Notes: generated by a model from the sequence alone, not told the origin. A stretch of 64,000 nt of DNA from a bacterium (GCA_016930535.1 JAFGGN010000041.1:88708-152707); one strand, 5' to 3'; shown: positions 1 through 24,973, counted from the first letter of the stretch. Numbers and translations: made by a program.

Positions 1-924
1 CAAATGCCCATTCTGGACGGATATAAAACAACCCACAAATTGCGCCACTGGGAGAAAAAACACACGGGAGCCGGCATGGAAAACAGCCGTCAAAAAATCC
101 CGATTATCGCCATGAGTGCGGATGTTCTGGGAGATACCGTCCGTAAATGCTTCAGCGCCGGAATGAACGACTATATCTCGAAACCTGTCGATCCAAGAAA
201 ACTCTTCGATCTGATCGCCAGGAACTTGCTGTTGTCCGCTCAACCCCTGAGTATCCCCTCCCAGGGCTACAAGACTATGATGACGAAACAAACCATACCT
301 CCAGAATTCTCATCCATCAAAACGCTGGATGTCCGGGACGGATTGAGACGCATCACTTACAACATCCCATTGTACAGGAAGCTCCTGATCATGTTCTGGC
401 ATAATTATCAGAACTTTCAAAATGACCTCGAGAACAGCCTGGTCAGCGACCTGGAAACAGCCATACGGCTCTCCCATACACTAAAGGGCGTGGCAGGCAA
501 TATCGGCGCTGTAAAAATTCATGAAGCGGCCGAACTTTTGGAAAACAGGTTGAAACGGAAGCCATATACTGCAGATCCGGAATTGATCGGAAATCTGGTG
601 ACGCATCTTTCTGAGACACTCAGGGAGCTGTCTCCCCTTGTCAGCAATGCGGGGAAGTCGCTGCCTGAAAAAACGCCCCGGAGAAAAATCGATCCGGAAG
701 CCGTTAAAACCAAATTCAGAACACTCGCAAAATCGATTGCGGACAGCAATACGGAATCCGCATCCCTGGTGGCTGATTTACAGTCGTACAGGTTTGATCC
801 AGTTCTATTGGCCAGGCTCGAAGAACTGCATGGGCTCGTATCCAATTATGATTTTGAAGATGCTGGGGAATGCTTAAAAAAAATTATGGAAATCCATAAT
901 CCGGATTTCCCCGGCGTTGAATAA
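1..924 (+). CDS. Partial (5'-truncated) hybrid-kinase C-terminus with a receiver-domain tail and an Hpt phosphotransfer domain
   Basis: The frame is open from base 1. The receiver tail reads 'IIAMSA...GMNDYISKPVD'. The Hpt signature is 'HTLKGVAGNIGA' (HxxKG). The stop is TAA at 922-924. Confidence 0.6.
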   Translation, partial: QMPILDGYKTTHKLRHWEKKHTGAGMENSRQKIPIIAMSADVLGDTVRKCFSAGMNDYISKPVDPRKLFDLIARNLLLSAQPLSIPSQGYKTMMTKQTIPPEFSSIKTLDVRDGLRRITYNIPLYRKLLIMFWHNYQNFQNDLENSLVSDLETAIRLSHTLKGVAGNIGAVKIHEAAELLENRLKRKPYTADPELIGNLVTHLSETLRELSPLVSNAGKSLPEKTPRRKIDPEAVKTKFRTLAKSIADSNTESASLVADLQSYRFDPVLLARLEELHGLVSNYDFEDAGECLKKIMEIHNPDFPGVE

Positions 925-1257
925 ACGCATCATTCCGCTGCGAGACAACTTTTTCTTCCCAGGCTGTGCGCCGTTCAGACTGTAAGGGCCAATTTCTTTT
1001 TTTACATGCGATTACGCTTATATTCCGGTCCGAACCCGGTCAGTCAATCCTGAACTCATCCAATCCGCATGCTGAAACAGGCGCCTGCCCGAATCTCAAA
1101 TTTGAAAATCCGTTTTCAAAAATGAAAATGTCCCATAACGATATATCTGGGCCTATGTCATTAAATATCATTTATTTATATTGTTTTTTATGTTTTGGCA
1201 TCCATCTTGTATTCAGTAGAATCAGGAAAACCGAAAAGCCAAAAACAGAGGTGTCTC

Positions 1258-4200
1258 ATGCCATTGATCCGACGCAAAGAAAGGAGCCTTTTCCTGATAC
1301 TGGTTTCCGTACTCCTGGTGTCTGAATTTATCGGTTTGCAAAGCACCCATCATTTGACGGGTCTTTTCTTCTCCTTTATTAATATAACGATCCTGTTCCT
1401 GCTGATCGCCCTGTACATTCTGTTGGGAAAGGATGTGTATCTTTCAGAAAACCGGATGACGACCATTCTTGAAAATGCATCCATGATCGTATATCTGAAG
1501 GATATTCAGGGAAGGTTCATGCATGTCAACCGTGCATTCGAAGTGATATACCGCATGAACCGGATACATATCATGGGAAAAACCTGTCATGACCTTCTGC
1601 CTGCCGCTCAGGCGGACATCCTGGTCAGCCATGAGAAGGAAGTGATCAATCAGGGAAAAACACGGACCTATGAAGAAACTGTGGATATGGAGGGAAATAG
1701 ATACACATTCCACAAAACTATATTCCCGCTTCGCAATCCCGACAATAAAATTACAGGTACGGGCGCCATTCTGATCGATATAACCGACAGGATCCGGATG
1801 GAGCAGGAATTGAGGGAACTGAATGCGAATCTGGGGAAAAAGATAAAAGAACGGACTGAAAGGCTGGCACAGAGTGAGGCGAAATACAGAAGTATTTTCG
1901 AAAACATCCAGGACGTGTTTTTCAGAACAGACATGAAAGGCACCATTACTGAAATCAGTCCGTCCGTCAGCCAGTATTTTTCCGTTGAACCTGAAACATT
2001 GATCGGCAGGCATGTCCGGGAACTTCTTTATCATTCCAACGATCACAAACAACTCATGCGCCGGCTCTACAGGGAAAAATCGGTCCAGGATTATGAACTT
2101 CCGTTTCGAACACCGGACAACCGGATCATCTGGACATCGGTCAATGCCCAGTTCATCTATGATTGTAAACGGAAAAAGTGCGGTATGGAAGGCGCTTTGC
2201 GTGATATCAGCCACAGAAAAACAGCTGAGATGGAAATCCGGAAACTGTCCCAGGCCGTGGAACAGAGTCCCGCCTGTGTTATTATTACCGAAAAAGAAGG
2301 CCATATTGAATATGTAAACTCGTTTTTTGAGGAATACACGGGATACGATTCTGAATTCATTACGGGCCAGCGTCTTGAAGTCATATTCTCAACTCAGGAT
2401 AAAGACGGGATCTATGATCAGATCCGGAAAAGAATCGGCGGACTCGATGCATGGCATGGAGATGTGCCGATTCGGAAAAAAGACGGGAAAATCACATGGA
2501 GCAACGGATCCATCGCCCCAATTATTGACGATCAGGGTAAAATTACTCATGTGATCGCGGTTTTTCTGGACATCAATCAAAGAAAAGAAATCGAAGAGGA
2601 ACTGCATCAGGAAAAATATCTGCTCCAGTCCCTCATGGAAAACATACCTGACGCCATTTATTTCAAGGACTGTGAAAGCCGTTTTCTCCGCATCAACCGG
2701 TCTCTCGCAGGCTTTCTCGGGCTCAACTCGCCGAAGGAGGCTGTCGGAAGAACCGATCTCGATTTTTTTGATATACGGCACGGCCAGGAAGCCTATGACG
2801 ATGAACGCAGGATCATATCCACCGGCGATCCGATCATCGGTAAAATCGAAGAAGACATCCTTCCTTCGGGATTCAGGAGATGGGTTTCAAGCACAAAAAT
2901 GCCGGTCAGGAACAGTATGGGAGATATCGTGGGCATTGTCGGCATATCCAGGGATGTAACTGATGTAAAGAACTATGAAAGAAAAATCAAGCTGCAGAAT
3001 CAGAAGTTGAAGGCGGCGAAATTCCGGGCTGAAGAAGCCACAAGGACTAAATCAGAATTTCTGGCCAATATGAGCCATGAAATCCGGACTCCCATGAATG
3101 CTATACTGGGTTTCTCGGAAATATTGAGCCGGTCCGTGACAGACCCGGTGATGAGAAACCATGTGTATGCAATCAACAGCAGCGGGAAAATGCTGCTCCA
3201 GTTGATAAACGATATACTCGACCTGTCCAAAATAGAAGCCGGTAAAATGGAACTGAATTTTACGTCTGTCAATGTCAAACACCTTTTTCATGAAATGCAG
3301 CAGATATTTTCTCATAAAATCCGGGAGAAAAACCTGGAAATGAGGATCAGCGTCGATGACAGACTGCCGGACGCGCTGCTCCTGGATGAAATCCGCATCA
3401 GGCAGATCCTGTTGAATCTGATCGGCAATGCAGTCAAGTTCACACACAAGGGCAATATCTCCGTTTCGGTATTTCAGAGGAATTTCGATGAAGCGCATTC
3501 CCGCCTGTCTCTCTGTTTCGAAGTCAGGGATACTGGTATCGGAATAGCCAAGGATCAGCAATCGGTGATTTTCGACAATTTTAAACAGCAGTCCGGACAG
3601 GACCATGCTCTGTATGGAGGAACCGGGCTCGGACTTTCCATCACCAAGCGACTCGTGGAACTGATGGACGGATCAATCGAGCTTGAAAGCAAAGAAAATG
3701 AAGGCAGCGCATTTCGTGTGATTCTGGAAAGGGTCGTAGTTTCTTCACTGCATGATATCCGCGATTATCAACTCCATGATTCCAGGGAAATCGTGTTTCA
3801 TGGAGGGAAAGTACTCGTGGTCGACGATGTGGAATCGAACCGGACATTGATACAGACATTCCTGGAATCCGGCAATCTCGAGGTGCTGCATGCGGAAAAC
3901 GGGGAAGACGCCATCCGGAAAGCCGGCTTATACATGCCTGATGTCATTCTCATGGACATTAAAATGCCCGTAATGGACGGATACGAAGCGACCCGGGAAA
4001 TCAAGAAAGATCCGCAGTTAAATAACATTCCGATTGTCATTCTGACAGCCTCGGCCATGAAACGGGATGAAAAGAGAATCCAGGATATCGGTGCGGACGG
4101 TTATTTGAGAAAACCCGTTTCCATGAATGAATTGCTGAAGGAGCTGTCGCGCCATCTCAAATATAGTGTGGGGCGCGGACCGGATGAACGGCCCGGAAGT

Positions 4201-4524
4201 CCCGATTCTGATGACCCCTTCAATGATACCGACGATATCGGTCTGCTCGTAAAAGCAGTCCGGATTATCGAACATGACCAGATGCCCGTCTGGCAAGACA
4301 TTAAGGACACAGTCATTTTAAGCGAAATCGAAGCGTTCGCCACATCCATATTCAACATCGGTGAATCCATGCAGATCGGTACATTGACAAAATGGGGGAA
4401 AACCCTGCTGCAGAAAGTGGCCAATTACGAAATGGCTTCCATTCCGCAAGTGATCGAACAATTCCCGGAATGCGTTTCAAAAATTAGATCCCGTATCGAA
4501 GAAGAAGGAGCATCCCATGGATGA
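1258..4524 (+). CDS. Hybrid sensor histidine kinase: TM, about 4 PAS/PAC, HisKA, HATPase, C-terminal REC
   Basis: The 1109-aa ORF 1195..4524 has a GAGGTG ribosome-binding site 7 nt before ATG 1258, so 1258 is preferred. HisKA reads 'MSHEIRTPMNAILGF'. The G2 box reads 'GGTGLGLSI'. The REC reads 'VLVVDDVESNR...ILMDIKMPVMDGYE'. The stop overlaps the next start (ATGGATGA). Confidence 0.85.
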   Translation: MPLIRRKERSLFLILVSVLLVSEFIGLQSTHHLTGLFFSFINITILFLLIALYILLGKDVYLSENRMTTILENASMIVYLKDIQGRFMHVNRAFEVIYRMNRIHIMGKTCHDLLPAAQADILVSHEKEVINQGKTRTYEETVDMEGNRYTFHKTIFPLRNPDNKITGTGAILIDITDRIRMEQELRELNANLGKKIKERTERLAQSEAKYRSIFENIQDVFFRTDMKGTITEISPSVSQYFSVEPETLIGRHVRELLYHSNDHKQLMRRLYREKSVQDYELPFRTPDNRIIWTSVNAQFIYDCKRKKCGMEGALRDISHRKTAEMEIRKLSQAVEQSPACVIITEKEGHIEYVNSFFEEYTGYDSEFITGQRLEVIFSTQDKDGIYDQIRKRIGGLDAWHGDVPIRKKDGKITWSNGSIAPIIDDQGKITHVIAVFLDINQRKEIEEELHQEKYLLQSLMENIPDAIYFKDCESRFLRINRSLAGFLGLNSPKEAVGRTDLDFFDIRHGQEAYDDERRIISTGDPIIGKIEEDILPSGFRRWVSSTKMPVRNSMGDIVGIVGISRDVTDVKNYERKIKLQNQKLKAAKFRAEEATRTKSEFLANMSHEIRTPMNAILGFSEILSRSVTDPVMRNHVYAINSSGKMLLQLINDILDLSKIEAGKMELNFTSVNVKHLFHEMQQIFSHKIREKNLEMRISVDDRLPDALLLDEIRIRQILLNLIGNAVKFTHKGNISVSVFQRNFDEAHSRLSLCFEVRDTGIGIAKDQQSVIFDNFKQQSGQDHALYGGTGLGLSITKRLVELMDGSIELESKENEGSAFRVILERVVVSSLHDIRDYQLHDSREIVFHGGKVLVVDDVESNRTLIQTFLESGNLEVLHAENGEDAIRKAGLYMPDVILMDIKMPVMDGYEATREIKKDPQLNNIPIVILTASAMKRDEKRIQDIGADGYLRKPVSMNELLKELSRHLKYSVGRGPDERPGSPDSDDPFNDTDDIGLLVKAVRIIEHDQMPVWQDIKDTVILSEIEAFATSIFNIGESMQIGTLTKWGKTLLQKVANYEMASIPQVIEQFPECVSKIRSRIEEEGASHG

Positions 4525-5611
4525 GCCGAACTTGAAAAAGAGACTGGTGCTCATCGTCGATGATGTGCCAAGAAATCTGCAGGTACTGGGCAGTGCCCTT
4601 AAAAATGACCGTATCGAAATCGCTGCTGCTCTCAACGGCAGGCAGGCTCTGAGTATTCTCGAAAAAGCAAAGCCTGACCTGATTTTACTGGATGTGATGA
4701 TGCCGGAGATGGATGGCTTCGAAACAATGAAGTATATAAAGGAAAATCCGGAAACCACGGATATTCCCGTGATTTTCCTGACTGCCCGGACCGAAATAGA
4801 AGATGTGGTCAAAGGCCTGGAGCTGGGCGCTGTCGATTATATCACAAAGCCGTTCAACCGTGTCGAACTGCTCACACGCGTGCACAATCATCTTGAACTC
4901 AAATATTCACGGGATGCGCTTAGAGATGCCAATGCCGCTAAAGACAAGTTTTTCTCAATTATTTCTCACGATATAAGAACGCCGTTTGCCGTGATTATCG
5001 GATTCGCCGAATATCTCGCCGAGCATTCGAAAACCATGGAAAAAAACCGGCTTTTGGAGCTATCCCAAGACATTCTGTCCGTATCCAGACAGGCACATCA
5101 GTTGTTCGAGAACCTGTTGCAATGGGCCAGGTCACAGGCAGGCCGAATCGAATTCAAACCGGAAAAAGTCGAATTTAAAAGATTGGTCGATGAAAATATC
5201 CAGTATATAAAAAATCGGGCGAACGAAAAAGGCATTCAACTCAATGTCACAATTCCTGAGAATCTGACTGTCTATGGGGACAGAAACATGCTTCATACCA
5301 TATTCCGGAATCTCACCTCGAACGCCGTCAAGTTTACCAGGCCGGGTGGAAATGTCCGTATATCGGCGGAGCCGGAGAAGGACAGTTACATTTTCTGTGT
5401 CGAGGACACCGGTGTCGGGATGCCGGACGACATCAGGAAAAAACTGTTCCGTATCGACGAGCATGTCTCCACGGCTGGTACTGAACAGGAAGAAGGTTCG
5501 GGGCTGGGCCTGATCCTGGTGAAGGAATTCGTGGAGAAACACGGCGGATCCATATGGGTTGAAAGCGAACCGGGGAAAGGCAGCCGGTTTCACATACGAA
5601 TGCCGGCATAA
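4517..5611 (+). CDS. REC-gated histidine kinase (N-terminal receiver, HisKA, HATPase; no sensor domain)
   Basis: The REC reads 'LVLIVDDVPRN...LLDVMMPEMDGFE...DYITKPF'. HisKA reads 'FFSIISHDIRTPFAVIIGF'. The G-boxes read 'EDTGVGMP' and 'GSGLGLILVK'. A GAAGGAG ribosome-binding site is present, and the start overlaps the upstream stop. Confidence 0.85.
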   Translation: MDEPNLKKRLVLIVDDVPRNLQVLGSALKNDRIEIAAALNGRQALSILEKAKPDLILLDVMMPEMDGFETMKYIKENPETTDIPVIFLTARTEIEDVVKGLELGAVDYITKPFNRVELLTRVHNHLELKYSRDALRDANAAKDKFFSIISHDIRTPFAVIIGFAEYLAEHSKTMEKNRLLELSQDILSVSRQAHQLFENLLQWARSQAGRIEFKPEKVEFKRLVDENIQYIKNRANEKGIQLNVTIPENLTVYGDRNMLHTIFRNLTSNAVKFTRPGGNVRISAEPEKDSYIFCVEDTGVGMPDDIRKKLFRIDEHVSTAGTEQEEGSGLGLILVKEFVEKHGGSIWVESEPGKGSRFHIRMPA

Positions 5612-5639
5612 GACAGAACAACTGGAAAGAAGGTGCAAT

Positions 5640-6056
5640 ATGGATAATCAGACGAAAAATATTTTGATCATAGAAGACAACCGGAAATACAGCAAATTGA
5701 TACAGATGAATCTGCAGGCGGCCGGATATCATGTCATCACATCGGAAAGCGGATTGCAGGGGCTCAATGCAACCCGTCAATTCAAACCTGACCTGATTCT
5801 TCTCGACATCATGCTCCCGGAACTGGACGGCCACAAAATCAGCAGGCTGCTCAAGAAGGACCGGCAATTCAAACACATTCCAATTCTCATGTTGACTTCC
5901 AGGGATCTCGATAAGGACCGGTACTACGCAACCGCATCCAATGTTGAAGGCTACCTTCTGAAAACCGAACCAATAGAAAAAATTCTGCAAAAAGTCAAAG
6001 ACAGTCTCAATAAAAACCAAAGCATAGGCCGTTTCGGCCTTGCCCATGTGAGGTAA
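5640..6056 (+). CDS. Stand-alone CheY-like response regulator receiver
   Basis: It reads 'ILIIEDNRKYS...LILLDIMLPELDGHK...LMLTSRD'. The internal ATG at 5640 is preferred because ORF 5559 would overlap the upstream gene. There is no output domain. Confidence 0.8.
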   Translation: MDNQTKNILIIEDNRKYSKLIQMNLQAAGYHVITSESGLQGLNATRQFKPDLILLDIMLPELDGHKISRLLKKDRQFKHIPILMLTSRDLDKDRYYATASNVEGYLLKTEPIEKILQKVKDSLNKNQSIGRFGLAHVR

Positions 6057-6064
6057 AAATCTCC

Positions 6065-6862
6065 ATGTCGCAGAAAATTAAAAATTTACTGGAATCAAAT
6101 CGAGCGGATTCTGAAATCATGAATAAAAAACACCCAATTGCATGCCCGTTCCCCGATACGTCCGAAGAGATCCGGAAACTCTGCAGTCACGATATCAAAT
6201 CACCCCTCAGCGCCATCATGGAATGCTGCTCCATGTTGTTCGAGAAGATGCCCGATGAACCGTTCCTGCATGATCTGCATGCAAATATCAACGACGCTAT
6301 CGAGAGTATCTGGACCATGATCGAACGAATCCATGCGCTCGTTCTGCTGCAGGACAAAGTGATGCCGTTTCATCCTAAACCCGTGAATATAACGGCCGTT
6401 GTCCGACATGTTGAAGCGAGGCTGGAAGACCGGCTGAAAGCCCATAACATGAATCTCCTGATCCGGTCATCCGCCGAAAATGTTCTGATCGGAACGAACG
6501 CCTGCAGAATGCGCGGAGACGATGTGGTCATCGGTTTTATCGTACAGCTGATCTTGAGAATGATCCTGAACTCCGCACAGTCTGCCGGGAGCCTGATCCT
6601 GGACATTCTCCAGGAAGAAGATGTCCGGGTAATGATAAAAGGACAGAGTCGAATACACGAATCATTGATGCAGATTCAGCGCTGTCTTCATGACAATGAT
6701 ACGTCGGCGGTCAATCCGGAATTGGAATGGAGAATCCTGTATCATCTCTGCAGAATGTCCGAAACCTCCATATCCTGCGCCCCGGCACACGACGACTCAT
6801 GGACGATCACTGTGCGTTTTCCGATATTGCCGGAAAAAACAAGGTGCCCTGATCATGCTTAA
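6065..6862 (+). CDS. Histidine-kinase-like protein with a degenerate ATP-binding domain
   Basis: An H-box-like 'CSHDIKSPLSAIMEC' is present. An N-box-like 'LILRMILNSAQSAG' is present. I cannot find the DxGxG (G1) or GxGxG (G2) motifs. Confidence 0.55.
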   Translation: MSQKIKNLLESNRADSEIMNKKHPIACPFPDTSEEIRKLCSHDIKSPLSAIMECCSMLFEKMPDEPFLHDLHANINDAIESIWTMIERIHALVLLQDKVMPFHPKPVNITAVVRHVEARLEDRLKAHNMNLLIRSSAENVLIGTNACRMRGDDVVIGFIVQLILRMILNSAQSAGSLILDILQEEDVRVMIKGQSRIHESLMQIQRCLHDNDTSAVNPELEWRILYHLCRMSETSISCAPAHDDSWTITVRFPILPEKTRCPDHA

Positions 6863-8030
6863 AAATCAGCAAAAAGCGAAAGTGCTGCTCGTGGATGATC
6901 TGTCGACAAACATCGACATTTTAAAATCGTTCCTGGAATCGGACTATATTACAATTGCCGCAAAAGACGGAAAAAAGGCAATTGCTTTGGCAGAAAAACA
7001 GCGGCCGGATCTTATCCTTCTTGACATTATGATGCCCGAAATCAATGGATTTGAAGTATTGTCGCATCTGAAATCCGACAGTATGACATCTCAAATTCCA
7101 ATCATGCTGATTTCATCAATCGATGACCGTGAATCCATCGTAAGAGGCTTCAGGGAGGGGGCGCACGATTATATTACCAAACCGTTTGAATCGGAAGAAC
7201 TTAAGGCAAGGATTTCAACACAGATTAAAATAAAAAGGCAAAGCGACTTGTTGACTCAAATGAATAAGGTTCTTGAAAACGAGGTCGAAAAACGGACCCG
7301 ACAACTTGAAGCCACCAATCAAATGCTGAAGGAAGCAAACGCACGGCTGAATAAATTCAGTCTGATCAAAAACCGTTTTCTCAATATCATTAGCCATGAA
7401 ATGAGGACACCTCTGGCCATCATGTCCCAATATATCGAGATTCTGAGCGAGGAATTGAATTCGGGTCGCTCTTCGGACTGCATCCGGGACATCAGCCAGG
7501 CTTATAGCAGAATACAATCCTTTTCCGAAAAGGCGCTGCTGATCACACAGCTCGACTCGGATGGATATTGTCTGAATCCGGAACCATTGAATATGGCCCA
7601 GTTAACAGAAACAGTTTTCCGGCAATTGGCTCCTGTTCCGGAATCCAAAGCAATTTCAATAAATAAAACCGGGGACTCCGATGTCATGATTTTCGGCGAC
7701 CGATCACTGATTCAATCATTGATTCACATTATTCTCGAGAATGCTGTTGGTTATTCCCGGAATGGCGGTGAAATCAGACTCCATTTTGCCGCATCCGGCA
7801 ATACAGTCGGAATATCTATCTTTGACACCGGGCCCGGATTTCCCGAAGAAGTCCTGCTCTATGCCTTTCAGCCTTTCTGCATCGGGAAAGAACCGATAAG
7901 GGAAAATTTCGGCCTCTCACTGACCATCGCCAGGCTGATCATGGAAGTACACCAGGGCAATATCGAGATAGCCAATCATAAAGACGGAGCCGTCGTTCAT
8001 CTGATATTTACACAATCGAAGGAGGATTAA
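6855..8030 (+). CDS. REC-gated histidine kinase (REC, HisKA, HATPase)
   Basis: The internal ATG at 6855 overlaps the upstream stop. The REC reads 'KVLLVDDLSTN...LILLDIMMPEINGFE...DYITKPF'. HisKA reads 'FLNIISHEMRTPLAI'. The G1 box reads 'FDTGPGF'. Confidence 0.8.
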   Translation: MLKNQQKAKVLLVDDLSTNIDILKSFLESDYITIAAKDGKKAIALAEKQRPDLILLDIMMPEINGFEVLSHLKSDSMTSQIPIMLISSIDDRESIVRGFREGAHDYITKPFESEELKARISTQIKIKRQSDLLTQMNKVLENEVEKRTRQLEATNQMLKEANARLNKFSLIKNRFLNIISHEMRTPLAIMSQYIEILSEELNSGRSSDCIRDISQAYSRIQSFSEKALLITQLDSDGYCLNPEPLNMAQLTETVFRQLAPVPESKAISINKTGDSDVMIFGDRSLIQSLIHIILENAVGYSRNGGEIRLHFAASGNTVGISIFDTGPGFPEEVLLYAFQPFCIGKEPIRENFGLSLTIARLIMEVHQGNIEIANHKDGAVVHLIFTQSKED

Positions 8031-8034
8031 AAAA

Positions 8035-9850: not shown

Positions 9851-9861
9851 AGGGGAATACC

Positions 9862-10281: not shown

Positions 10282-10293
10282 CGCAATCTCCAA

Positions 10294-11185: not shown

Positions 11186-11205
11186 GAGCCACTTCCTTTT
11201 TTGGA

Positions 11206-16160: not shown

Positions 16161-17516
16161 TTAAAACCTGGGATCCGGCACCCTGAACTGCGCCTTTGCG
16201 CTTCTTTCGAGCTGCTCCTTTTTCTTGTTTTTCAGATACAGTGTCTGCCGTAATCCCCGGTCACGCAGTGTATCCGATGCCACTGTCGCGGCCGTGCCGT
16301 GATAAATGCGTCTGCCGAAACGCCGGATCACGTTCCAGTCGATTTCCACACCCAGACCCGGACCGTCCGGAATTTGAATGCGTCCTTCCGGATCCCGGTC
16401 AAATCCGCCTCTGATAAAACGGGCCCAGACGCCGGGATTCCAATGCCCCTCCACAGGATATTCCAGAAGACCGCGTTCTTCGGGCGGCAGCACACCCACG
16501 AGCTGCAGGGCCAGGGCGAAACCCAGTCCCGTGGTCCAGGTATGCGGACTGTATTTTATACCCTTTGCGGATTTCTTTTTCTGCTGATTATATCGCCGGA
16601 TCTCCCGGATCAGCCAGGTCACTACCGAAACACCGCCGGCATACGTTCCACCCGCCAGTACCGCATCCGGCTGATACACATCCAGGCTTCCCAGCCCCAG
16701 CATGGTCTTGAAATCGCACCAGGTCGAATTCATCTCCCCGCCGGCGATGGGCGTATTCGTGTTTTTTCTGAGCTCCGCCAGGCCTTCAAAATCGCCCCGG
16801 TTTAAAGGTTCCTCCAGCCATTTGATGTCGAATGTCTCGATACTGCGGGCAAATTTCATGGCAAACTCGAGATTCCATTTCGGTGTTTCGTCCAGCAGGT
16901 CCACGGGCCATCCCTGATTGGCATCGACCATCAGATCGGTTTCCCTGCCGAGGGCGTCACGCGCAGCTCCGACAAAATCCGTCATCAAAGCCAGTGTCGT
17001 ACCCTTGACCCTCAGCTTCATTCCTCTGTAGCCCGCGTCCTGCACCTGTTTGCAGATATCACGGATCTTTTCCGGATCATGACCATGTGTGGCCCCGGTG
17101 GACAGGTACGGATAAACGGATCCCCCGGTTCCACCCAGGATTTTCCACAGCGGCGCTCCTTTTATCTTGCCGATAATATCCCAGAAAGCCGCATCGATCC
17201 AGCCGTTCCGCATGCCGATATACGAAAATTCCTGAATGCGCTGATTGACGAGCTCGATATCCATGGGATTGATGCCCATGATATAGTTGCCCATAAGCGG
17301 TCCGAGTCCCATACGCTCCGATCCCATCGCAGGCATGGCCGCGACGCCGTCGACTCCCTTGTCCGTTCCGAGCCTGAGCAGATAAAACCGCATTTCCGAC
17401 TGCCTGAATCCGGGTATCCAGCTCGGAAGAAAGTACCTGGGATTTCCGAAAAAACCCGGTGCATTTTTCTCGAGCGGGATCTTGACAAAATACAGGTCGA
17501 TCCTGTTGATTTTCAT
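16161..17516 (-). CDS. Enolase-superfamily (mandelate racemase/muconate lactonizing) dehydratase-like protein, with an internal insertion and a C-terminal extension
   Basis: It reads 'DANQGW', 'KWLEEP' and 'IAGGE'. These match the general-base and metal-ligand positions of the MR/MLE family. Confidence 0.6.
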   Translation of the reverse strand: MKINRIDLYFVKIPLEKNAPGFFGNPRYFLPSWIPGFRQSEMRFYLLRLGTDKGVDGVAAMPAMGSERMGLGPLMGNYIMGINPMDIELVNQRIQEFSYIGMRNGWIDAAFWDIIGKIKGAPLWKILGGTGGSVYPYLSTGATHGHDPEKIRDICKQVQDAGYRGMKLRVKGTTLALMTDFVGAARDALGRETDLMVDANQGWPVDLLDETPKWNLEFAMKFARSIETFDIKWLEEPLNRGDFEGLAELRKNTNTPIAGGEMNSTWCDFKTMLGLGSLDVYQPDAVLAGGTYAGGVSVVTWLIREIRRYNQQKKKSAKGIKYSPHTWTTGLGFALALQLVGVLPPEERGLLEYPVEGHWNPGVWARFIRGGFDRDPEGRIQIPDGPGLGVEIDWNVIRRFGRRIYHGTAATVASDTLRDRGLRQTLYLKNKKKEQLERSAKAQFRVPDPRF

Positions 17517-17875
17517 GGCATTCTCATCCCTTCTTATCTGTATATAAAACAGGATGAATCCAGGTCAGTCGTAATTTTACTGATCCTGACTCTATCCTGG
17601 ATGAATATATGTATCGATTTGAATTTCGGGGCAATTATTTGGAAATTACATGTTACACGGATAAAAGGCAAGCGAAAATTCTTCCTAAAATAATACAAGC
17701 TTATTATACAGGTATTTCTTATAAATTGCCAATTTTTCTTGATAATTCCTGAAATATTATTTACATTTATATTATTACAGCATAATGAACATGTCTGCAG
17801 ATTCTACATTAAAACATTAAAACGGTTCTCACGAAGTCTCTCTTCCGATCGATTCAATTAGTGAGGGATCCTGAA

Positions 17876-19855
17876 ATGAAGAAATCCCGATTGAGCCGTT
17901 TTTTTATGATCCTGATCGTATTTACTCAAACCCTCTATACATTGTACGCCCAGAAACAGAATATGGACGAACTCCTGGATCTAAGTCTCGAAGAACTTGC
18001 AAACGTACATATAATTACCACTTTTAAAATACCTCAAAAAATAAAAGAAGTACCGGCCGTCATAAGAGTCATCACAGATGAACAGATCAGGAACAACGGT
18101 TATCTGACTCTGGAGGAGGCCCTTTCCACCCTGCCGGGCATGCAATTCCGGAACATCAACAGTTTTAACAGTTACGTGTTCATGCGCGGAGCGCCCAGCC
18201 AGAACAATCTTATTTTGGTCCTGATCGACGGCATACAAATAAACGAGCTGAATTCGGGAGGTTTTTATGGAGGGGCTCAGTATAATTTATCCAATGTTGA
18301 ACGCATCGAGATTGTCTATGGTCCTGCATCCGCCTTATATGGCACCAATGCCATTTCCGGAATCATTAATATTATCACAAAGAAACCCGAAAAATATTCC
18401 GGACTCGATCTTAATGCTCTCGCCGGGACGTTTAATACAATGCATATAAATATGGGCTATGGATACTGGAACAGCAGCAAAAAAATGGGATTTCGTATTT
18501 CAGGTTCTGCCAAGACCAGTGAAAAGGCCGATCTGAAAGAGAAGGCCGGAGACAACAACTGGACCGCTTCTTTGGAGAATTTTGAAGACGATTATTCAGT
18601 CGATGCAAATGTGAAATGGTATAAATTCTGTTTTGAATTGAATTATCTTGAAAAACGGAGTTCAGCGGCCACATACAATAAATCTGTAGGTACTGATTAT
18701 CGTGATACCGGCACATTCTGGGATATCAGATTCTTCAACACCGCTCTGAAGCACGATACTGATTTAGGCCCAAAAACGGTGATGTCATCCCAAATCTATT
18801 ACCGCAATACATCGGTACTGGACAATTCTGTTCTGGTCGTCACCGACACGGCACAAATCGGTTATTACCGCCCCAACAGTCTTTTCGGATTTGAAAGCAT
18901 GATTCATTATTCTACACCAAAACGTTTTGACCTGATCACCGGAATATTATATGAAAACGAAAACCTCGCCCGGAAATACTCAAATACTTACAGCACTGGA
19001 CCGGATATTAGACCCCGAAAGCCCGATGAACCGCCTATGGAATACAATACACTGTTGAGTATCTACGGACAGACCAAACTGTTTTTAACACCACCGGTCG
19101 AACTCTACGCCGGGGCACGGTTCGATAACAGCAGTGCCTATCATCGCGTGTTCACACCCCGTCTGGGACTGGTATACAATAAAAACAGCTTGACTGCAAA
19201 ATTGATTTATATGGAAGCATTCCGTGCCCCAAAACCTTGGGATTATGCGAACGGACTGGGAAATCCCCTTCTAAAATCCGAGCGCATCCGTTCGTATGAG
19301 TTGTATGCTAGCCGTGTGCTGATGCCCGATCTCGTGTTGAATTTCTCAATATATTCGAACCGTCTAAGCAATCTTTTGGTTAAGGAATCCTATGCAGATG
19401 AATCGTGGCGCTGGATTAATCACGGTCAACTAAACACCAATGGGTATGAAATTTGCGTGGAATACAGAAAACGGAAAATCCGGTCTTCAGCCAACTATAC
19501 ATGGAACAATTCGACCGACGAAAACAACAGGACAATTCCCGAAATCAGCAGACATTGTTCGAACCTGATTCTGCAGTATTCTTTATCAGGTAAATTCCAT
19601 TTCAGTATCGGTTGTCATTATATAGGAAGAAGAAAAAATACCCGTACTATTTCGACGACCGGCAGTAATTTTGTGGATGCCGCATTCATCGTCCACTCGG
19701 CATTGACTTATGTTTTATCTTCGAATTGGGAAATGCAACTGGCTGTCAAGAATCTGAAGAATGCCGAATACTATCATACATCGAATCTGTCTCCGGATCG
19801 ATATCGTCAGCCGCAAAGAACCGTCATTTTTAAAGCGGGATATCATCTGAAATAA
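17876..19855 (+). CDS. TonB-dependent outer-membrane receptor
   Basis: A GAGGGA ribosome-binding site sits 7 nt before ATG 17876. A signal peptide is present. The plug domain reads 'VIRVITDEQIRNNGYLTLEEALSTLPGMQF...IEIVYGPASALYGTNAISGIINIITK'. A beta-barrel follows. Confidence 0.85.
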   Translation: MKKSRLSRFFMILIVFTQTLYTLYAQKQNMDELLDLSLEELANVHIITTFKIPQKIKEVPAVIRVITDEQIRNNGYLTLEEALSTLPGMQFRNINSFNSYVFMRGAPSQNNLILVLIDGIQINELNSGGFYGGAQYNLSNVERIEIVYGPASALYGTNAISGIINIITKKPEKYSGLDLNALAGTFNTMHINMGYGYWNSSKKMGFRISGSAKTSEKADLKEKAGDNNWTASLENFEDDYSVDANVKWYKFCFELNYLEKRSSAATYNKSVGTDYRDTGTFWDIRFFNTALKHDTDLGPKTVMSSQIYYRNTSVLDNSVLVVTDTAQIGYYRPNSLFGFESMIHYSTPKRFDLITGILYENENLARKYSNTYSTGPDIRPRKPDEPPMEYNTLLSIYGQTKLFLTPPVELYAGARFDNSSAYHRVFTPRLGLVYNKNSLTAKLIYMEAFRAPKPWDYANGLGNPLLKSERIRSYELYASRVLMPDLVLNFSIYSNRLSNLLVKESYADESWRWINHGQLNTNGYEICVEYRKRKIRSSANYTWNNSTDENNRTIPEISRHCSNLILQYSLSGKFHFSIGCHYIGRRKNTRTISTTGSNFVDAAFIVHSALTYVLSSNWEMQLAVKNLKNAEYYHTSNLSPDRYRQPQRTVIFKAGYHLK

Positions 19856-19882
19856 TTCACAATCCAAACACAAAATTTATAA

Positions 19883-20416
19883 ATGACAAAAAAAATACTC
19901 GTCTCGTTTTACCTTCTATTTTCTCCGTGTGTCTGTGAACCGAACATGACAAATCTGGATGCAGAATACGGCTACGAAGTAAAAGCCGTATTCATATACA
20001 ATTTCACTAAATACATAAACTGGATCGACGATGATCGGTCGCCGTATTTCGACATCGCCGTTATAGGAGAGAGTCCGATTACTGAACCACTGAAACAGAT
20101 TGCTCAAAAACGTCTAGTCTGTCAGAAAAAGATTAAAATCAGTCAACTTGAAAATGCAGATCAAATCGACTATTGTCATATTATATTTATACCGGAATCT
20201 GAAAAATCCCATCTGAAATATATTGTGAGTCGGGTTCAAAATAAAAATATACTAATCGTATGCGAAATAAAAAACTCGCTTGAGAGCGGCGCCATGATCA
20301 ATTTTGTACCTGCTCAGGATAAAATAAAATTTGAAATCAATCTGCTGGCAATGAATAAATCGAGTTTCAATCCGGGATCCGAATTGCTGAAGCTGGCCGT
20401 GCGGCTGATTGATTAG
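19883..20416 (+). CDS. YfiR-like DUF4154 periplasmic protein
   Basis: It reads 'KAVFIYNFTKYINW', the YfiR/DUF4154 signature. A signal peptide is present. It sits between the TonB receptor and the kinase. Confidence 0.7.
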   Translation: MTKKILVSFYLLFSPCVCEPNMTNLDAEYGYEVKAVFIYNFTKYINWIDDDRSPYFDIAVIGESPITEPLKQIAQKRLVCQKKIKISQLENADQIDYCHIIFIPESEKSHLKYIVSRVQNKNILIVCEIKNSLESGAMINFVPAQDKIKFEINLLAMNKSSFNPGSELLKLAVRLID

Positions 20417-20428
20417 GAGGATACGGAT

Positions 20429-22336
20429 GTGAAAATTATTCATGAATTCCCCATCAAGGGGAAACTGATACTGATTCAATTATTGACAACATTTACAGTG
20501 ATGCTGTTTTACAGTATATTTCACATTATTCGAGACACCCAATTTTACTTTAATTCTGTAAGTCATGAATTGACCACGATGACAAAGCTGGTTGGATCAA
20601 GCTGCATATCAGCTCTGCATTTTCTCGATAAGGAGGCCGCCCAAAAAAACCTTTCCGCACTTGAAGCGGAGGAGAATGTCGTAAATGCCTGGATTCATGA
20701 TTCGGACAGCGTACTCTTTGCTGCATACTATAAAGACGGATATGTTCTTGATAAACCGTTGGATAAAATCATTAAAAAACAGGATAAATTTATCGTCACT
20801 TCGAGACCGATTGTGTACGAGGGGGAAATCATCGGTTTTATTTCCATTCGTTATGATATGAAAGTATATCGGCAGATAATTTATAAAAACACAATGATCA
20901 CTCTGATCATATTTCTGATAGGTATGGGAACCGCCTGGTTGCTGGCGATTTTTACACAAAGAACCATTTCAGATCCGATTCTGAAATTGCTGGAGAGTAT
21001 GAGAATAATTTCTGAAACCGGAAACTACGGTATTCGCCCGGTTAAACAGAGAAACGATGAAATCGGCATACTCTCAGATGGCATATGCGAAATGCTGGAA
21101 CAAATACAAATTCGTGAAAATGAAAGAAATGCTGTAAACAGAGCCTTACATGAGAGCGAAGACAAATATCGAAACCTTGTGGAACGTGCGAACGACGGTA
21201 TCGTTATCCTGCAGGACGGTATTTTCAAGTATGTTAATCCGAGCCTGGTGACAATGGCCGGATGTACTGAACAAGAGCTGTTGGGTAAACCTTTTGTCGA
21301 TTTCATACATGAGGAAGAACGATCTAAAGTGATGGAGAATTATTTCAGGCGAATGGCCGGGGAGACAGTCTACAGCATGTATGAAACCCAATTTAAAACG
21401 AGCAGTGAAGAAGTGATCGATGCGGAGGTTAATGCGGGTTTCATCTCGTATCTGGGAAAACCGGCCGATCTGGTCATTATCCGGAATATTACCCGACGAA
21501 AACAGATGGAACGGGAACTAATTAAACACCGCAACCATCTCGAGGAGCTTGTTGAAGAACGGACGAAAGAACTGGCCGAAGCGAATAAACGTCTACTTGA
21601 ATTGGATCGTTTGAAATCAATGTTTTTGGCTTCGATGAGCCACGAACTTCGAACTCCGTTGAATTCGATTATCGGTTTTACGGGAATTCTGCTTATGGGA
21701 ATGGCTGGCACCCTGAATCCTGAACAAAAAAAACAGCTGGAAATGGTGAAAAGCAGTGCCAGCCACCTGCTGGATCTGATCAACGACATTTTGGATATTT
21801 CAAAAATCGAATCGGACAAGGTAGATCTTTCAATTCAAACATTCGATTTGGTCGATGTCATTCTTGAGGTAATAAAATCCATTCGGCCGATCGCGGACAG
21901 TAAAAATTTGCATTTATCTTATCATGGCATTGAAAATATCCGGATTGACAGCGATAGACGACGGGTTAAACAAGTTCTAATGAATCTGATTTCAAACTCT
22001 GTTAAATTCACGGATAGCGGTTCAGTGACGGTTACCCTCACCTCTATAAATGACCTATCCGTTTCCGTAGAGGTAAAAGATACCGGAATAGGTATTCGTA
22101 AAGAGGAACTTAACATACTGTTCCATCCATTTCAACAATTGGATATGTCATCCACAAAGAAATACGAGGGTACCGGACTGGGTTTATATCTTTCGAAAAA
22201 AATCATAAGCCTTCTGCACGGTGAAATTTCCGTTGCCAGCAAGTACGGTGAAGGAAGTGCATTCACATTCGTGCTGCCGATCCAATGGCAAAAGGAGAAA
22301 AAAAGTGAAAACTGTGTTGATCATCGAGGACAATGA
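20429..22336 (+). CDS. Sensor histidine kinase (TM, HAMP, PAS, HisKA, HATPase)
   Basis: The start is GTG, with an AGGAGG ribosome-binding site 9 nt upstream. HisKA reads 'MSHELRTPLNSIIGF'. The G-boxes read 'KDTGIGI' and 'GTGLGLYLSK'. Confidence 0.85.
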   Translation: MKIIHEFPIKGKLILIQLLTTFTVMLFYSIFHIIRDTQFYFNSVSHELTTMTKLVGSSCISALHFLDKEAAQKNLSALEAEENVVNAWIHDSDSVLFAAYYKDGYVLDKPLDKIIKKQDKFIVTSRPIVYEGEIIGFISIRYDMKVYRQIIYKNTMITLIIFLIGMGTAWLLAIFTQRTISDPILKLLESMRIISETGNYGIRPVKQRNDEIGILSDGICEMLEQIQIRENERNAVNRALHESEDKYRNLVERANDGIVILQDGIFKYVNPSLVTMAGCTEQELLGKPFVDFIHEEERSKVMENYFRRMAGETVYSMYETQFKTSSEEVIDAEVNAGFISYLGKPADLVIIRNITRRKQMERELIKHRNHLEELVEERTKELAEANKRLLELDRLKSMFLASMSHELRTPLNSIIGFTGILLMGMAGTLNPEQKKQLEMVKSSASHLLDLINDILDISKIESDKVDLSIQTFDLVDVILEVIKSIRPIADSKNLHLSYHGIENIRIDSDRRRVKQVLMNLISNSVKFTDSGSVTVTLTSINDLSVSVEVKDTGIGIRKEELNILFHPFQQLDMSSTKKYEGTGLGLYLSKKIISLLHGEISVASKYGEGSAFTFVLPIQWQKEKKSENCVDHRGQ

Positions 22337-22664
22337 TAAAAACCTGTATTTGTTACGCTTTCTTATAGAGAAACTCGGCCATCGTGTCATCGAAGCCAGG
22401 GACGGCTTGAACGGAGTGAAAGTGGCCATGATCGAAAAACCGGATGTCATTTTAATGGATATACAGCTTCCGGCGATGGACGGATATGAAGCCACGCAAG
22501 AAATTCGATCGATGGATTCATTCAGAAATGTTCCCATAATTGCAATCACATCCTATGCCATGGAAGGAGACCGCGAAAAATCATTGGCTGCCGGGTGTAC
22601 GGATTATATTGAAAAGCCCATAAAACCCGAGCAGTTTATTGAAAGAATCAAATCATACCTTTAA
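22305..22664 (+). CDS. Stand-alone CheY-like receiver
   Basis: A GTG start at 22305 follows an AAGGAG ribosome-binding site and overlaps the kinase's 3' end. It reads 'VLIIEDNDKNL...VILMDIQLPAMDGYE...IIAITSYA'. Confidence 0.75.
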   Translation: MKTVLIIEDNDKNLYLLRFLIEKLGHRVIEARDGLNGVKVAMIEKPDVILMDIQLPAMDGYEATQEIRSMDSFRNVPIIAITSYAMEGDREKSLAAGCTDYIEKPIKPEQFIERIKSYL

Positions 22665-22675
22665 GGGAGCCATCC

Positions 22676-23833
22676 ATGAAAATCCTGATCGTCGATGATA
22701 AAGACGAAAATCTGCTGTTACTCAACACCCTGTTAAAAGGAATCGGTCACGATGTGGAACAGGCGGAAAACGGTAAAAAAGCTCTGGAAAAGTTGAAAAA
22801 AAATACTTTTGAAATGATTATATCCGATATCCTTATGCCTGTAATGGATGGATATGAACTCTGCCAGGCATGTAAAAAGGATCCTGAATTAAAAAATATT
22901 GTTTTTGTTTTCTATACAGCCACCTATACAGAAAAAAACGATGAAATATATGCCATGCAATTGGGTGCAGATAAATTTCTGATCAAACCCATGGAACCGA
23001 AAGCATTCCTGTCGGCCATAACCGAACTGGCCAAGAAAGTAGAACAGCATAAAATCATCGTGAAAAAGCCCGAAATTGCAGATGCCGAAGCAATTAAAAT
23101 GCATCGGGATCGGCTTCTGAACAAACTCAGTAAAAAAATAGAGGAATTGCAATCAGAAATAGAAAGGCGCAAAAAAGCCGAAGAACAGGTCCAGAAAGAT
23201 TTAATGGAGAAAGAAATCCTGCTCCGTGAACTTTATCATCGGACAAAAAACAACATGCAGGTTATTTGTTCAATGCTTCGACTGAAGGCTCGCTTTACAA
23301 AGAACCAGGAATTGACCGGAATTTTAACGGAAATTGAGAATAAAATATCATGCATGGCACTCGTTCAACAAAAACTTTACGATTCAAACAACCTGTCTTA
23401 TATAAATCTAATAGAATACATCGAAAGTCTTGTCCAGTTGATTAAGGAAAGTTATGCTTCATCATTGGAAGGAATAGTAATTTCTGTCAATGGTGACGTC
23501 ATCAAAGTTCTGTTGGATACGGCGATTCCGTGTGGCCTGATAATCAATGAACTGATGACGAATACAATCAAGCATGCCTTCCCCGATACATCCAAAGGCA
23601 ATTTGGATATATCCCTGAACTTGAATGAAACAAGAGAACTCGTTCTCAGGGTTTCGGATAATGGCATCGGTCTTCGGGATGACTTGAACACAGTGAAGAG
23701 CCGAGGTCTCGGAATTCAAACCATACTGGATCTGGTCGAGTACCAGCTCGACGGAGTAGTGAATTTTGAAAACAGAGACGGCCTCTGCTGTACGATTATC
23801 CTGAAACAAGAACTTTACGAACCAAGGATTTAA
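22676..23833 (+). CDS. REC-gated HisKA_2-type histidine kinase
   Basis: The REC reads 'ILIVDDKDENL...ISDILMPVMDGYE'. The H-box is of the HisKA_2 (HWE-like) type, 'HRTKNNMQVI'. A HATPase_c_2 region follows. Confidence 0.75.
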   Translation: MKILIVDDKDENLLLLNTLLKGIGHDVEQAENGKKALEKLKKNTFEMIISDILMPVMDGYELCQACKKDPELKNIVFVFYTATYTEKNDEIYAMQLGADKFLIKPMEPKAFLSAITELAKKVEQHKIIVKKPEIADAEAIKMHRDRLLNKLSKKIEELQSEIERRKKAEEQVQKDLMEKEILLRELYHRTKNNMQVICSMLRLKARFTKNQELTGILTEIENKISCMALVQQKLYDSNNLSYINLIEYIESLVQLIKESYASSLEGIVISVNGDVIKVLLDTAIPCGLIINELMTNTIKHAFPDTSKGNLDISLNLNETRELVLRVSDNGIGLRDDLNTVKSRGLGIQTILDLVEYQLDGVVNFENRDGLCCTIILKQELYEPRI

Positions 23834-23834
23834 T

Positions 23835-24227
23835 ATGTGTGGCAATTTAAAGGTCCTGATTGTTGAAGATGAGTATTTGACAGCAAAATGCATCTTCCAT
23901 GAATTAAAAGATTTGGATACTGATCCGCTGAATCCAGTCGCAAAAGGTGAACTTGCTGTCCAAGTGGCTTTAAATGAAAAACCGGATCTTATTCTGATGG
24001 ATATCCGTTTAGCCGGTAAAATGGATGGTATCGAAGCCGCACAAAAAATCAAGAACCAGATAGATATCCCAGTTGTATTTTTTTCAGGATATGCAACGGA
24101 GCAGATCGTTAAAAAAGCAAAAACCGTCAATTACCTTGAATTCCACGAAAAACCCGTGACAATTGGGCTGTTAAAATCCATTATTGATCGATTAAAAGTA
24201 CAAATTAAAGAAAGGAAATCACTTTAA
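23835..24227 (+). CDS. Stand-alone receiver
   Basis: It reads 'VLIVEDEYLTA...LILMDIRLAGKMDGIE...VVFFSGY'. The start codon abuts the upstream stop. Confidence 0.75.
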   Translation: MCGNLKVLIVEDEYLTAKCIFHELKDLDTDPLNPVAKGELAVQVALNEKPDLILMDIRLAGKMDGIEAAQKIKNQIDIPVVFFSGYATEQIVKKAKTVNYLEFHEKPVTIGLLKSIIDRLKVQIKERKSL

Positions 24228-24875
24228 TACTTTTCAGTTCGGGCTCAATAGGCATCAGAATAGATGCCAGGTTCAGATACATCACATCCTCCGGTCAAGA
24301 TTTATGGATATTCATACTTACAGATAAACGTACTGGTGAAATTATAGCTGCTACCGCTGCATCGGATCATCCTTTTTACGGCAATGGAGGAGATCCCCGC
24401 AAAATTCCGCATCCTTTTGTAAAATACTACACTGAAGATTTACTGGATAACCGTGAGATAGTTCTTCTCGATAAAGAAACAACTACCATGTTAAAGTGAG
24501 AAAACTTATTAGGCTAACAGACAAGGACATCGAATATATAAAACTGAAAACGGCAGAATTAATAAAATTACAGGAACAAGAAAAGAGGGAAAAAAACTAT
24601 ATGCTTTAAAACAAAAGTTCGATTTGACCGATGAAGAATTGCTGTTATTGACCGGCAGTCAAATTCATCATGAAAAGTCACGGATATATGCGGCACTGCC
24701 AAAAAATACAGATACGCCTCATTAATTTGACACTTGTTATTAAAAATCTGCTTGAAAATTTACATTCATGGAGGTCTAATAAGAAAGCGGTTTTTATATG
24801 TTATTTTAATTGATAAAATATGGTATTAATTCAGATAGAAACAGCCAACTACATTTATTACAGTACAATAAATTG

Positions 24876-24952
24876 ATGGTGGGCGATACGGGATTCGAAC
24901 CTGTGACCTCTGGTATGTGAGACCAGCGCTCTAACCAACTGAGCTAATCGCC
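24876..24952 (-). tRNA. tRNA-Val (anticodon CAC), CCA encoded
   Basis: The reverse complement folds as GGGCGAT | TAGCTCAGTTGGTTAGAGC | GCTGGTCTCACATACCAG | ... GGTTCGAATCC ... ATCGCCC A CCA. The acceptor stem is 7 bp, the TPsiC arm reads GTTCGAATC and the anticodon loop reads CTCACAT. Confidence 0.85.
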
Positions 24953-24973
24953 CGAAATTTTTGTATTGTTTAA

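Follow-up and report, generated by a model that had tools for sequence, protein, structure and literature searches.

Organization of the locus

The 3′ flank of a tRNA-Val(CAC) gene was analysed in a stretch of 64,000 nucleotides of DNA from a bacterial metagenome-assembled genome (GCA_016930535.1, JAFGGN010000041.1:88708-152707; locus tags JW948_), here termed the window, with positions counted from its first nucleotide. A preliminary description, made from the sequence alone, had proposed that the left 25 kb of the window (compartment A, or the left side) is a genomic island of lower guanine-plus-cytosine (GC) content, abutting the 3′ end of tRNA-Val. As had been reported, the tRNA is encoded on the minus strand, with the 3′ CCA end directed at the left compartment; the coordinates first given were one base off. 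Domains were assigned by Pfam scans of open reading frames (ORFs) of at least 100 amino acids, together with spacer fragments, in 1-24,876. The features of the left side are listed below, where RR denotes response regulator and GC3 the GC fraction at third codon positions.

1-8412, plus strand: block A1, seven co-oriented two-component genes (Pfam, gene starts from a protein collection; 46.7% GC, GC3 0.49-0.60)
4-924, plus strand: A1 RR-Hpt, cut by the window edge
1258-4524, plus strand: A1 PAS hybrid kinase
4517-5611, plus strand: A1 RR-kinase
5640-6056, plus strand: A1 RR
6119-6862, plus strand: A1 HisKA-like gene
6855-8030, plus strand: A1 RR-kinase
8035-8412, plus strand: A1 RR
8750-9850, minus strand: IS4-family transposase pseudogene (Pfam fragments, ORF map; ~38% GC)
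9862-15812, minus strand: block A2, with a signal-peptide protein of unknown function, two RRs, kinase-RR, RR-PAS and RR-kinase (Pfam, Logan contig gene calls; 42.8% GC)
11206-12801, minus strand: A2 kinase-RR
13147-14487, minus strand: A2 RR-PAS
14595-15812, minus strand: A2 RR-kinase
16161-17516, minus strand: enolase-superfamily (MR_MLE) gene (Pfam; 55.7% GC, GC3 0.64)
17876-24227, plus strand: block A3, with a TonB-dependent receptor, DUF4154 (YfiR-like), CHASE8-PAS kinase, RR, RR-HisKA_2 kinase and RR (Pfam, gene calls)
22305-22664, plus strand: A3 RR
22676-24227, plus strand: A3 RR-HisKA_2 kinase and the last RR
24218-24650, plus strand: pseudogene of a phage tail-fibre family (homologue search, alignment, tblastn fragment map)
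24739-24783, minus strand: candidate decayed vestige of a post-tRNA element, hairpin part (local alignment)
24877-24953, minus strand: tRNA-Val(CAC) (ARAGORN)

Two-component signalling accounts for 17 of the 20 left-side genes when DUF4154 is counted into its sensor module, and the signalling supercluster previously described on this side was borne out by Pfam and gene calls. The repertoire comprises Hpt, PAS hybrid kinases, RR-kinases, single RRs and a module of DUF4154 (YfiR-like), CHASE8-kinase, RR, RR-HisKA_2 kinase and RR. The three non-signalling genes are a small signal-peptide gene (9862-10293), the MR_MLE gene and the TonB-dependent receptor, the first gene of the DUF4154 module. The MR_MLE gene resembles the right side in composition though it is embedded in the low-GC left side; a homologue search was uninformative, the gene product being 73-76% identical to proteins named from several phyla.

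A compositional step at tRNA-Val

By likelihood segmentation, no GC change-point in the window is stronger than the one at ~25,070, which has a log-likelihood ratio of 203; the runner-up reaches 97. The GC content is 44.0% on the left side (1-24876) and 52.1% on the right side (24954-64000), or 53.6% on the right when a low-GC patch is omitted, giving a step of ~8-9 points across tRNA-Val. The lower-GC left compartment and the shift at the tRNA are thus real; the 58-62% GC claimed for the right side was not recovered, ~60% being reached only at 45-49 kb, and the step falls short of the ~15 points that the first estimates imply. Codon composition followed the same division, with a GC3 of 0.505 +/- 0.073 for the 20 genes on the left and 0.609 +/- 0.101 for 24 genes on the right (Mann-Whitney p=2.6e-5). 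The left side is itself a mosaic. Its genes span GC3 values from 0.34 to 0.64, block A3 is the lowest (~40% GC, GC3 ~0.43), and segmentation divided it into four parts.

1-8670: left GC segment 1, 46.7% GC
8671-16100: left GC segment 2, 42.8% GC
16101-17480: left GC segment 3, 55.7% GC
17481-25070: left GC segment 4, 39.9% GC

A second low-GC patch was found at 54111-57990 (3.9 kb, 39.0% GC, GC3 0.27-0.34), with right-side sequence on both flanks. It codes for a DUF7948/SBBP beta-propeller protein with a C-terminus of the type IX secretion system (T9SS) type. With either side of the window its tetranucleotide usage correlates at only ~0.73, so that it looks more foreign than the left compartment, and a copy of an octamer repeat described below stands at its right edge.

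Remnants of mobile DNA on the left side

Two scars of mobile DNA were observed. The first is the IS4-family transposase, of which a DUF4372 fragment (9626-9790, minus strand, Pfam E=1.2e-5) and a DDE_Tnp_1 fragment (9209-9493, minus strand, Pfam E=1e-5) are recognizable, the frame being broken by stops and frameshifts into pieces of at most 94 amino acids. The remnant therefore exists as had been reported, but its GC content is 36-39%, with a lowest 200-bp window of 31.5%, and not 23-30%. A comparison of the remnant with plasmids gave no match.

The second scar lies in the spacer that touches the tRNA 3′ end. This spacer (24228-24876; 649 bp, 34.4% GC) contains no intact gene, which confirms the gene-free AT-rich stretch noted previously, and the orphan reading frame without a start codon reported there is also real. 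The frame (24209-24496) is homologous to 504 proteins at E<=1e-3 (best 1e-30), the matches always falling on an internal or C-terminal stretch of proteins mostly of 230-630 amino acids, and alignment of the homologues revealed an invariant motif, DHP.YGNGGD...PHPF. By tblastn, three fragments were resolved in three frames (24218-24496, the conserved core; 24487-24597; and 24594-24650), with an internal deletion of ~45 amino acids and the loss of at least 190 N-terminal residues. The pseudogene is oriented towards the tRNA and is truncated at the end of the last RR gene; only ~430 bp are left.

The N-termini of the homologues match PHROG tail and tail-fibre families, for example P0259 against phrog_1640 at 3e-32. 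The family is encoded on 40 IMG/VR contigs, and tape-measure, tail-fibre or virion-structural neighbours were present in four of the six contigs checked: on L093 the genes preceding the family gene code for a tape-measure protein and a tail-fibre protein (phrog_11439, 1.8e-72), on L099, L108 and L126 it stands beside virion-structural genes, and on L097 and L110 no phage neighbour was recognized beside it. These homologies indicate that the orphan frame is a 5′-truncated, frameshifted and decayed phage tail-fibre gene. No match to the family was found among GenBank phages, and neither tRNA genes nor partial tRNA-Val 3′ ends were found near the homologues on viral contigs. The region resembles a cryptic prophage remnant in holding a truncated, frameshifted homologue of a gene from the tail modules of uncultivated phages (L093, L099, L108, L126). 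It differs in that the homologue amounts to ~430 bp only, with no other phage genes, integrase or attachment (att) site found; Pfam scans of 1-24,876 detected no further phage-type domains (integrase, replication, packaging, lysis).

The C-terminal domain of the 504-member family (P0248-P0397) carries the invariant pattern R-Y-x-T-x-S-G...W...DHP-x-YGNGGD...P-x-PF. No Pfam domain was detected in the homologues, and the orphan frame reveals an un-annotated, widespread C-terminal phage tail-fibre domain for which there is no Pfam model. Signal peptides are present on some members, while others are fused to phage tail-fibre N-termini; cellular proteins resembling fibres would accordingly make use of the domain as well, and some members may be cellular fibre proteins.

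Synteny with relatives ends at tRNA-Val

To the right of tRNA-Val the gene order is conserved, in the following features.

24974-38285, minus strand: start of the conserved, syntenic, higher-GC block (Pfam; same order in L081 and L082/L132)
29022-29095: tRNA-Thr(CGT) (ARAGORN)

The order of the block is STAS/HATPase_c_2 kinase, LpxL, Peptidase_MA_2, PorV-like, tRNA-Thr, TIG, PorV, a 710-amino-acid protein, a TonB/CarboxypepD receptor and LacI. The right side also carries many T9SS-type secreted proteins, and its gene repertoire is that of a bacterium of the Fibrobacteres-Chlorobi-Bacteroidetes (FCB) group. Among GTDB representative genomes the best match to LpxL is only 36% identical, and there is no close relative among these representatives. 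In a large protein collection the nearest relatives are L081 (GCA_042566775.1) and L082/L132 (JGI 3300030616), with LpxL identities of 64% and 62%, and of 62-66% for LpxL and the kinase together.

At least nine genes, with amino-acid identities of 44-79%, are collinear in both relatives, as are tRNA-Thr and tRNA-Val. Past tRNA-Val neither L081 nor L082/L132 shares any collinear gene with the window, and synteny ends exactly at the tRNA. The preliminary description had asked whether one gene order is kept next to tRNA-Val in relatives; the right-side genes up to the tRNA are kept in L081 and L082/L132, and the left-side order is found in neither. Past tRNA-Val, L132 has only an inverted kinase-RR pair of different domain architecture, L081 has Peptidase_M28 and AraC-type genes, and L082 has an AT-rich spacer, a PAS-HisKA_2 kinase and RR, IS4-type (DDE_Tnp_1_4) fragments, DUF438 and NrfHA. 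The adjacency of kinase and tRNA-Val recurs in nine further metagenome contigs, in which the kinase is 41-48% identical; in five of them the neighbour following the tRNA is readable, and no two are alike (an S9 peptidase; a TPR protein; an IS3 transposase; PIN with AAA_14/DUF4143; MFS/Sua5/tmRNA). The 3′ flank of tRNA-Val is therefore a synteny breakpoint throughout the lineage, with mobile-element genes at this position in several genomes. In the nine more distant contigs synteny on the other side of the tRNA is also lost, and consequently only the two closest relatives give an informative asymmetry. The GC content after tRNA-Val is lower than before it in all related loci examined except L134.

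Several candidate correspondences were rejected. Peptidase_M28, the next gene after the tRNA in L081 and found close to LpxL in L087, was considered as the ancestral tRNA neighbour, but the two proteins are only 29% identical over ~100 amino acids. The kinase and RR beyond the tRNA in L082 share 48-52% identity with window 22676-24227 and were considered as possible orthologues, but the kinase has a PAS and not an RR N-terminus, the pair is inverted, and a better collinear orthologue exists in L197. L085 and L087 (~50% LpxL identity) keep only tRNA-Thr, PorV-like, Peptidase_MA_2 and LpxL, with no kinase or tRNA-Val, and so have no bearing on the junction. The P0004 relative contigs end before tRNA-Val.

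IS3 transposase, PIN, AAA_14/DUF4143 and small DUF2442/DUF4160/PIN genes were seen on the tRNA-Val flank in L136 (1381-2394) and L139 (3495-5966) and around an A3-like block in L198 (11446-14372), a content typical of variable or defence-type neighbourhoods.

A conserved element after the tRNA

An element of ~150 nt directly follows tRNA-Val in L132 (10912-11070), L133 (1781-1935) and L135 (3704-3810). All three carry three ATTTGTRSC repeats along with, 86-87 nt past the tRNA, a TGGCAC-N5-TGGCAC motif of sigma-54-like type, and in L132 and L133 a CCTCC hairpin is followed by a T-run. The element is intact in L132 and L133, ~100-150 nt after tRNA-Val, and L135 keeps the promoter-like part. It is ~78% identical between L132 and L133, although the kinase proteins of these two loci share 47% identity and blastn detects no similarity between their genes. 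In the window a 47-nt alignment to the L132 element was obtained at 24739-24783, at the same offset from the tRNA, with a score of 35 compared with 21.9 +/- 2.8 for shuffled sequences; none of 500 shuffles reached it. The low-GC DNA begins at the tRNA 3′ end, but this apparent vestige intervenes before the phage pseudogene. If the element is ancestral, the first foreign DNA would begin behind the vestige rather than within the tRNA. An ancestral reading has its weak point in L134, which is closely related to L133 and does not carry the element; the element could on this account itself be the arm of a mobile element. Neither the element nor the tRNA end plus element was found in IMG/VR, and Rfam gave no match for the element, only the tRNAs being matched.

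Tests for integration into the tRNA

The 3′ end of tRNA-Val (GGTTCGAATCCCGTATCGCCCA) was used to search for a second copy. None was found in 1-24,200 with 17 or 25 nt and up to 2-3 mismatches, the distal boundary lying outside the window, and local alignment of the tRNA 3′ half to the same interval gave nothing above shuffled sequences; the direct repeat suggested to lie further left is thus not found within 1-24,200. No tyrosine or serine recombinase was detected in 1-24,876, where all ORFs and spacer fragments scanned gave only signalling, TonB, MR_MLE and IS4 domains. The integrase gene of tRNA-targeting elements is reportedly located, as a rule, next to the tRNA.

The tRNA itself was also examined. 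Its T-stem contains an A.C mismatch (ACAGG/CCCGT), and its CCA end is encoded, which is the case in none of the relatives examined. A hybrid tRNA with a 3′ end supplied by an element, suggested by the mismatch and by the encoded CCA unlike L081 and L082, was ruled out by L142, whose tRNA (10850-10924) is identical to that of the window over 75 nt, including the mismatch, while the adjacent kinase is only 47% identical. The window tRNA is therefore native and no element-derived 3′ end is visible.

These data bear on a classical integrase-mediated island, or a large composite one, inserted in the 3′ end of tRNA-Val with its integrase and attR beyond the left window edge. Such an island would account for the GC step at the tRNA, the IS and phage scars, the absence on the left of the octamer repeat family of the host, and a post-tRNA flank that is variable in all relatives and holds mobile-element genes in several. 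It is not readily reconciled with the lack of an integrase in the tRNA-proximal 25 kb, where one is normally expected, with a tRNA identical to that of a distant relative and without a 3′ repeat above chance in 1-24,200, or with a vestige of a conserved element between the tRNA and the first phage DNA. The cargo of signalling genes only, the mosaic composition and the host-like tetranucleotide signature presented below also speak against it, and we regard it as distinctly unlikely. The earlier proposal of a classic tRNA-integrated island finds support as far as a distinct, non-syntenic, scar-bearing region adjoining tRNA-Val is concerned, and finds none in the searches of this region for an integrase and a tRNA repeat, in the form of the tRNA, in the tetranucleotide signature or in the mosaic make-up of the region.

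Tetranucleotide signature and the origin of block A3

Tetranucleotide usage deviation, normalized for base composition, was correlated between the two sides with r = 0.94, compared with 0.96 within the right side and 0.89-0.94 within the left. Correlation to the conserved block of L082 was 0.93 for the left and 0.92 for the right, against 0.18-0.79 with loci from unrelated phyla. Uniform tetranucleotide usage had been named in the preliminary description as its own point of refutation, and the usage found on the left is host-like: GC and GC3 deviate across the tRNA as the island proposal predicted, and the tetranucleotide signature does not. The left side therefore bears a signature typical of its lineage, which rules out both recent acquisition from a distant source and an unrelated organism as partner in a chimera. 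The signature fits equally well with a native origin, with acquisition from a relative and with a chimera in which a relative took part.

Orthologues of block A3 were found through homologues of its RR-HisKA_2 kinase. The whole block is collinear on a contig found both in the JGI metagenome of L082 (L198) and in an ENA assembly (L197), in the order TonB receptor, DUF4154, CHASE8 kinase, RR, RR-HisKA_2 kinase, an extra hybrid kinase and RR. Amino-acid identities to A3 are 66, 54, 58-66, 73, 51 and 56%, similar to those of core genes between the window and L082. No tRNA lies beside the A3-like block in L197 or L198. The GC3 values of the two gene sets were compared.

Eight core genes, GC3: window 0.633, L082 0.435, L081 0.313
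Six A3 genes, GC3: window 0.428, L197 0.449

The gap between A3 and core genes is 0.20 in the window, and in the relative the two sets are equal. A higher AT content is therefore no intrinsic property of signalling genes in this lineage, and the rise in GC of the core genes of the window did not extend to A3. Two readings fit the GC3 of A3: later entry from a lower-GC relative, or two related genomes joined at an identical tRNA.

The same comparison bears on the proposition that the region is native and that nothing was acquired, signalling genes, or weakly expressed or rarely recombining genes, simply being AT-richer and the tRNA an incidental boundary. A host-like tetranucleotide signature, a cargo typical of the lineage and the lower GC content after tRNA-Val in all related loci but L134 would agree with it. 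In the relative, however, the GC3 of the signalling block equals that of the core (0.449 and 0.435), as opposed to a difference of 0.20 in the window, and the abrupt step, the scars of mobile DNA and the lack of synteny with relatives on the left also argue against native origin, which we consider improbable.

The four-gene module of sensor kinase, RR, RR-HisKA_2 kinase and RR (window 20429-24227) is also collinear, at 48-60% identity, in L090 (5999-9030), L091 (7118-11537) and L197 (7376-11185). The genomes with this module have quite different tetranucleotide signatures, some being named Cloacimonadota, and in L091 the context is ordinary chromosome.

Origin of the left compartment

Taken together, these data favour, at an evenly balanced level of confidence, a left 25 kb that is a mosaic plasticity zone filled stepwise from related lower-GC lineages, and not one classical tRNA-integrated island. 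At least the tRNA-proximal block, A3, was most likely acquired. Compartment A would then be a lower-GC, lineage-specific stretch starting ~100-150 bp beyond the 3′ end of the conserved pair of kinase and tRNA-Val(CAC), in which two-component blocks of differing compositional age were presumably brought in or replaced at different times. Recombination with relatives of lower GC content from within the same uncultivated lineage may have supplied the blocks; the lineage-like tetranucleotide signature points to related donors or long residence. A3, nearest to the tRNA, would be the most recent arrival. Entry may have proceeded by homologous or illegitimate recombination, perhaps helped by a prophage or an IS, and not by an integrase acting on the tRNA. 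The separate 39% GC patch at 54.1-58.0 kb, inside the right side, indicates that the genome does take up low-GC DNA.

The region shares with tRNA-linked genomic and pathogenicity islands and integrative elements its position next to a tRNA 3′ end, a lower GC content, IS and phage remnants, accessory sensory cargo and the absence of the left side from the same site in relatives, the nearest of which have 62-66% protein identity. It differs from them in having no integrase within 25 kb, no att duplication seen and no element-derived tRNA 3′ end, in that the first foreign DNA would lie ~150 bp past the tRNA behind a conserved vestige, and in its mosaic structure and host-like signature. Chromosomal hotspots, or regions of genomic plasticity, are variable segments between conserved core genes in which transferred genes accumulate; they often lie close to tRNAs and lack intact mobility genes. 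The left compartment resembles these in having one conserved flank, content that varies with each relative, blocks of different ages and degraded mobile elements; it differs in that only one flank is visible, the relatives are too distant (41-66% protein identity) for turnover among close kin to show, and the cargo is almost purely two-component. A plasticity zone flanking a tRNA is an already known phenomenon. If the junction is real, the locus would be another such zone, special in that its genes are nearly all sensory and come from lower-GC relatives; it would be of use for the annotation of a poorly known lineage and is not surprising.

Several points weigh against a plasticity zone filled from relatives. 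The left end lies outside the window, where an integrase and an attR repeat could be located. The closest relatives have only 62-66% protein identity, at which presence or absence among near relatives is not readable. Synteny and the repeat family are the sole marks of the right side as host-typical, and the treatment of L197/L198 and L082 as one organism derives from their shared sample, similar GC content and tetranucleotide r of 0.85-0.89. Furthermore, a per-run Logan contig (SRR13394437), identical to the window over 12962-24908, stops inside the tRNA at 24908. The tRNA is identical in widely diverged relatives, and a mis-join of two related genomes at this point would therefore give the same picture.

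Such an assembly chimera would involve two related organisms in the sample, of ~53% and ~44% GC, whose contigs were joined via a shared tRNA-Val. A tRNA that is 75-nt identical to that of L142, at a kinase identity of 47%, can act as a repeat between genomes, and the end of the Logan contig inside it would indicate a branch in the assembly graph. The left side combines the lineage signature with the GC and GC3 of the lower-GC relatives and is free of the right-side repeats, as a chimera would be. On the other hand, GC3 on the left is heterogeneous and includes a gene at right-side GC, whereas the GC3 ranges of the relatives are tight, and block A1, with a GC3 of 0.55-0.60, approaches the lower values of the right side. 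Contigs built at k=31 break in any conserved tRNA, so that the Logan break carries little weight, and the low-GC insertion flanked by right-side sequence demonstrates that this genome carries such DNA. A chimera appears unlikely on balance, but it has a lesson of method: this tRNA is identical in relatives whose neighbouring protein is only 47% identical, a GC step at this position may just as well reflect contigs wrongly joined during assembly of a metagenome-derived genome, and validation at the level of reads is needed before an island is called.

A mosaic plasticity zone might also be one instance of a lineage-wide exchange site downstream of the kinase and tRNA-Val, at which sensory cassettes (TonB receptor, YfiR-like protein, kinase, RR) would be swapped without a dedicated integrase in an uncultivated FCB-type lineage, marked by the post-tRNA element that was lost in the window. 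This extension is speculative and its probability is low.

Octamer repeats and other features of the right side

A family of composite repeats built of 8-nt units (TCTCCGTT and GACCCAAT types) occupies intergenic positions and forms long imperfect palindromes. The copies were located by a repeat search.

25986-26175: first composite repeat copy, built of TCTCCGTT and GACCCAAT units
29179-29360, 41694-42170, 42785-43090, 57994-58232, 60508-60690 and 60916-61023: other copies

The family is present in 6 of 13 right-side spacers and in none of the eight on the left, and single units number 53 on the right and 2 on the left. The absence of the family from the left 25 kb, as previously described, therefore holds, but the contrast is only marginally significant (Fisher p=0.046) and the missing repeat is weak supporting evidence. 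No octamer units were found in L081 and L132, including the orthologous spacers, or in six other related loci, and the remaining four loci have at most three, scattered and unclustered. From this distribution the family looks like a recent, genome-specific expansion, possibly resembling miniature inverted-repeat transposable elements.

Tandem arylsulfotransferase/CBM_4_9 paralogues were found at 50542-51247 and 52902-53607, with matches resembling T9SS tails; their DNA is 70-74% identical over several hundred bases.

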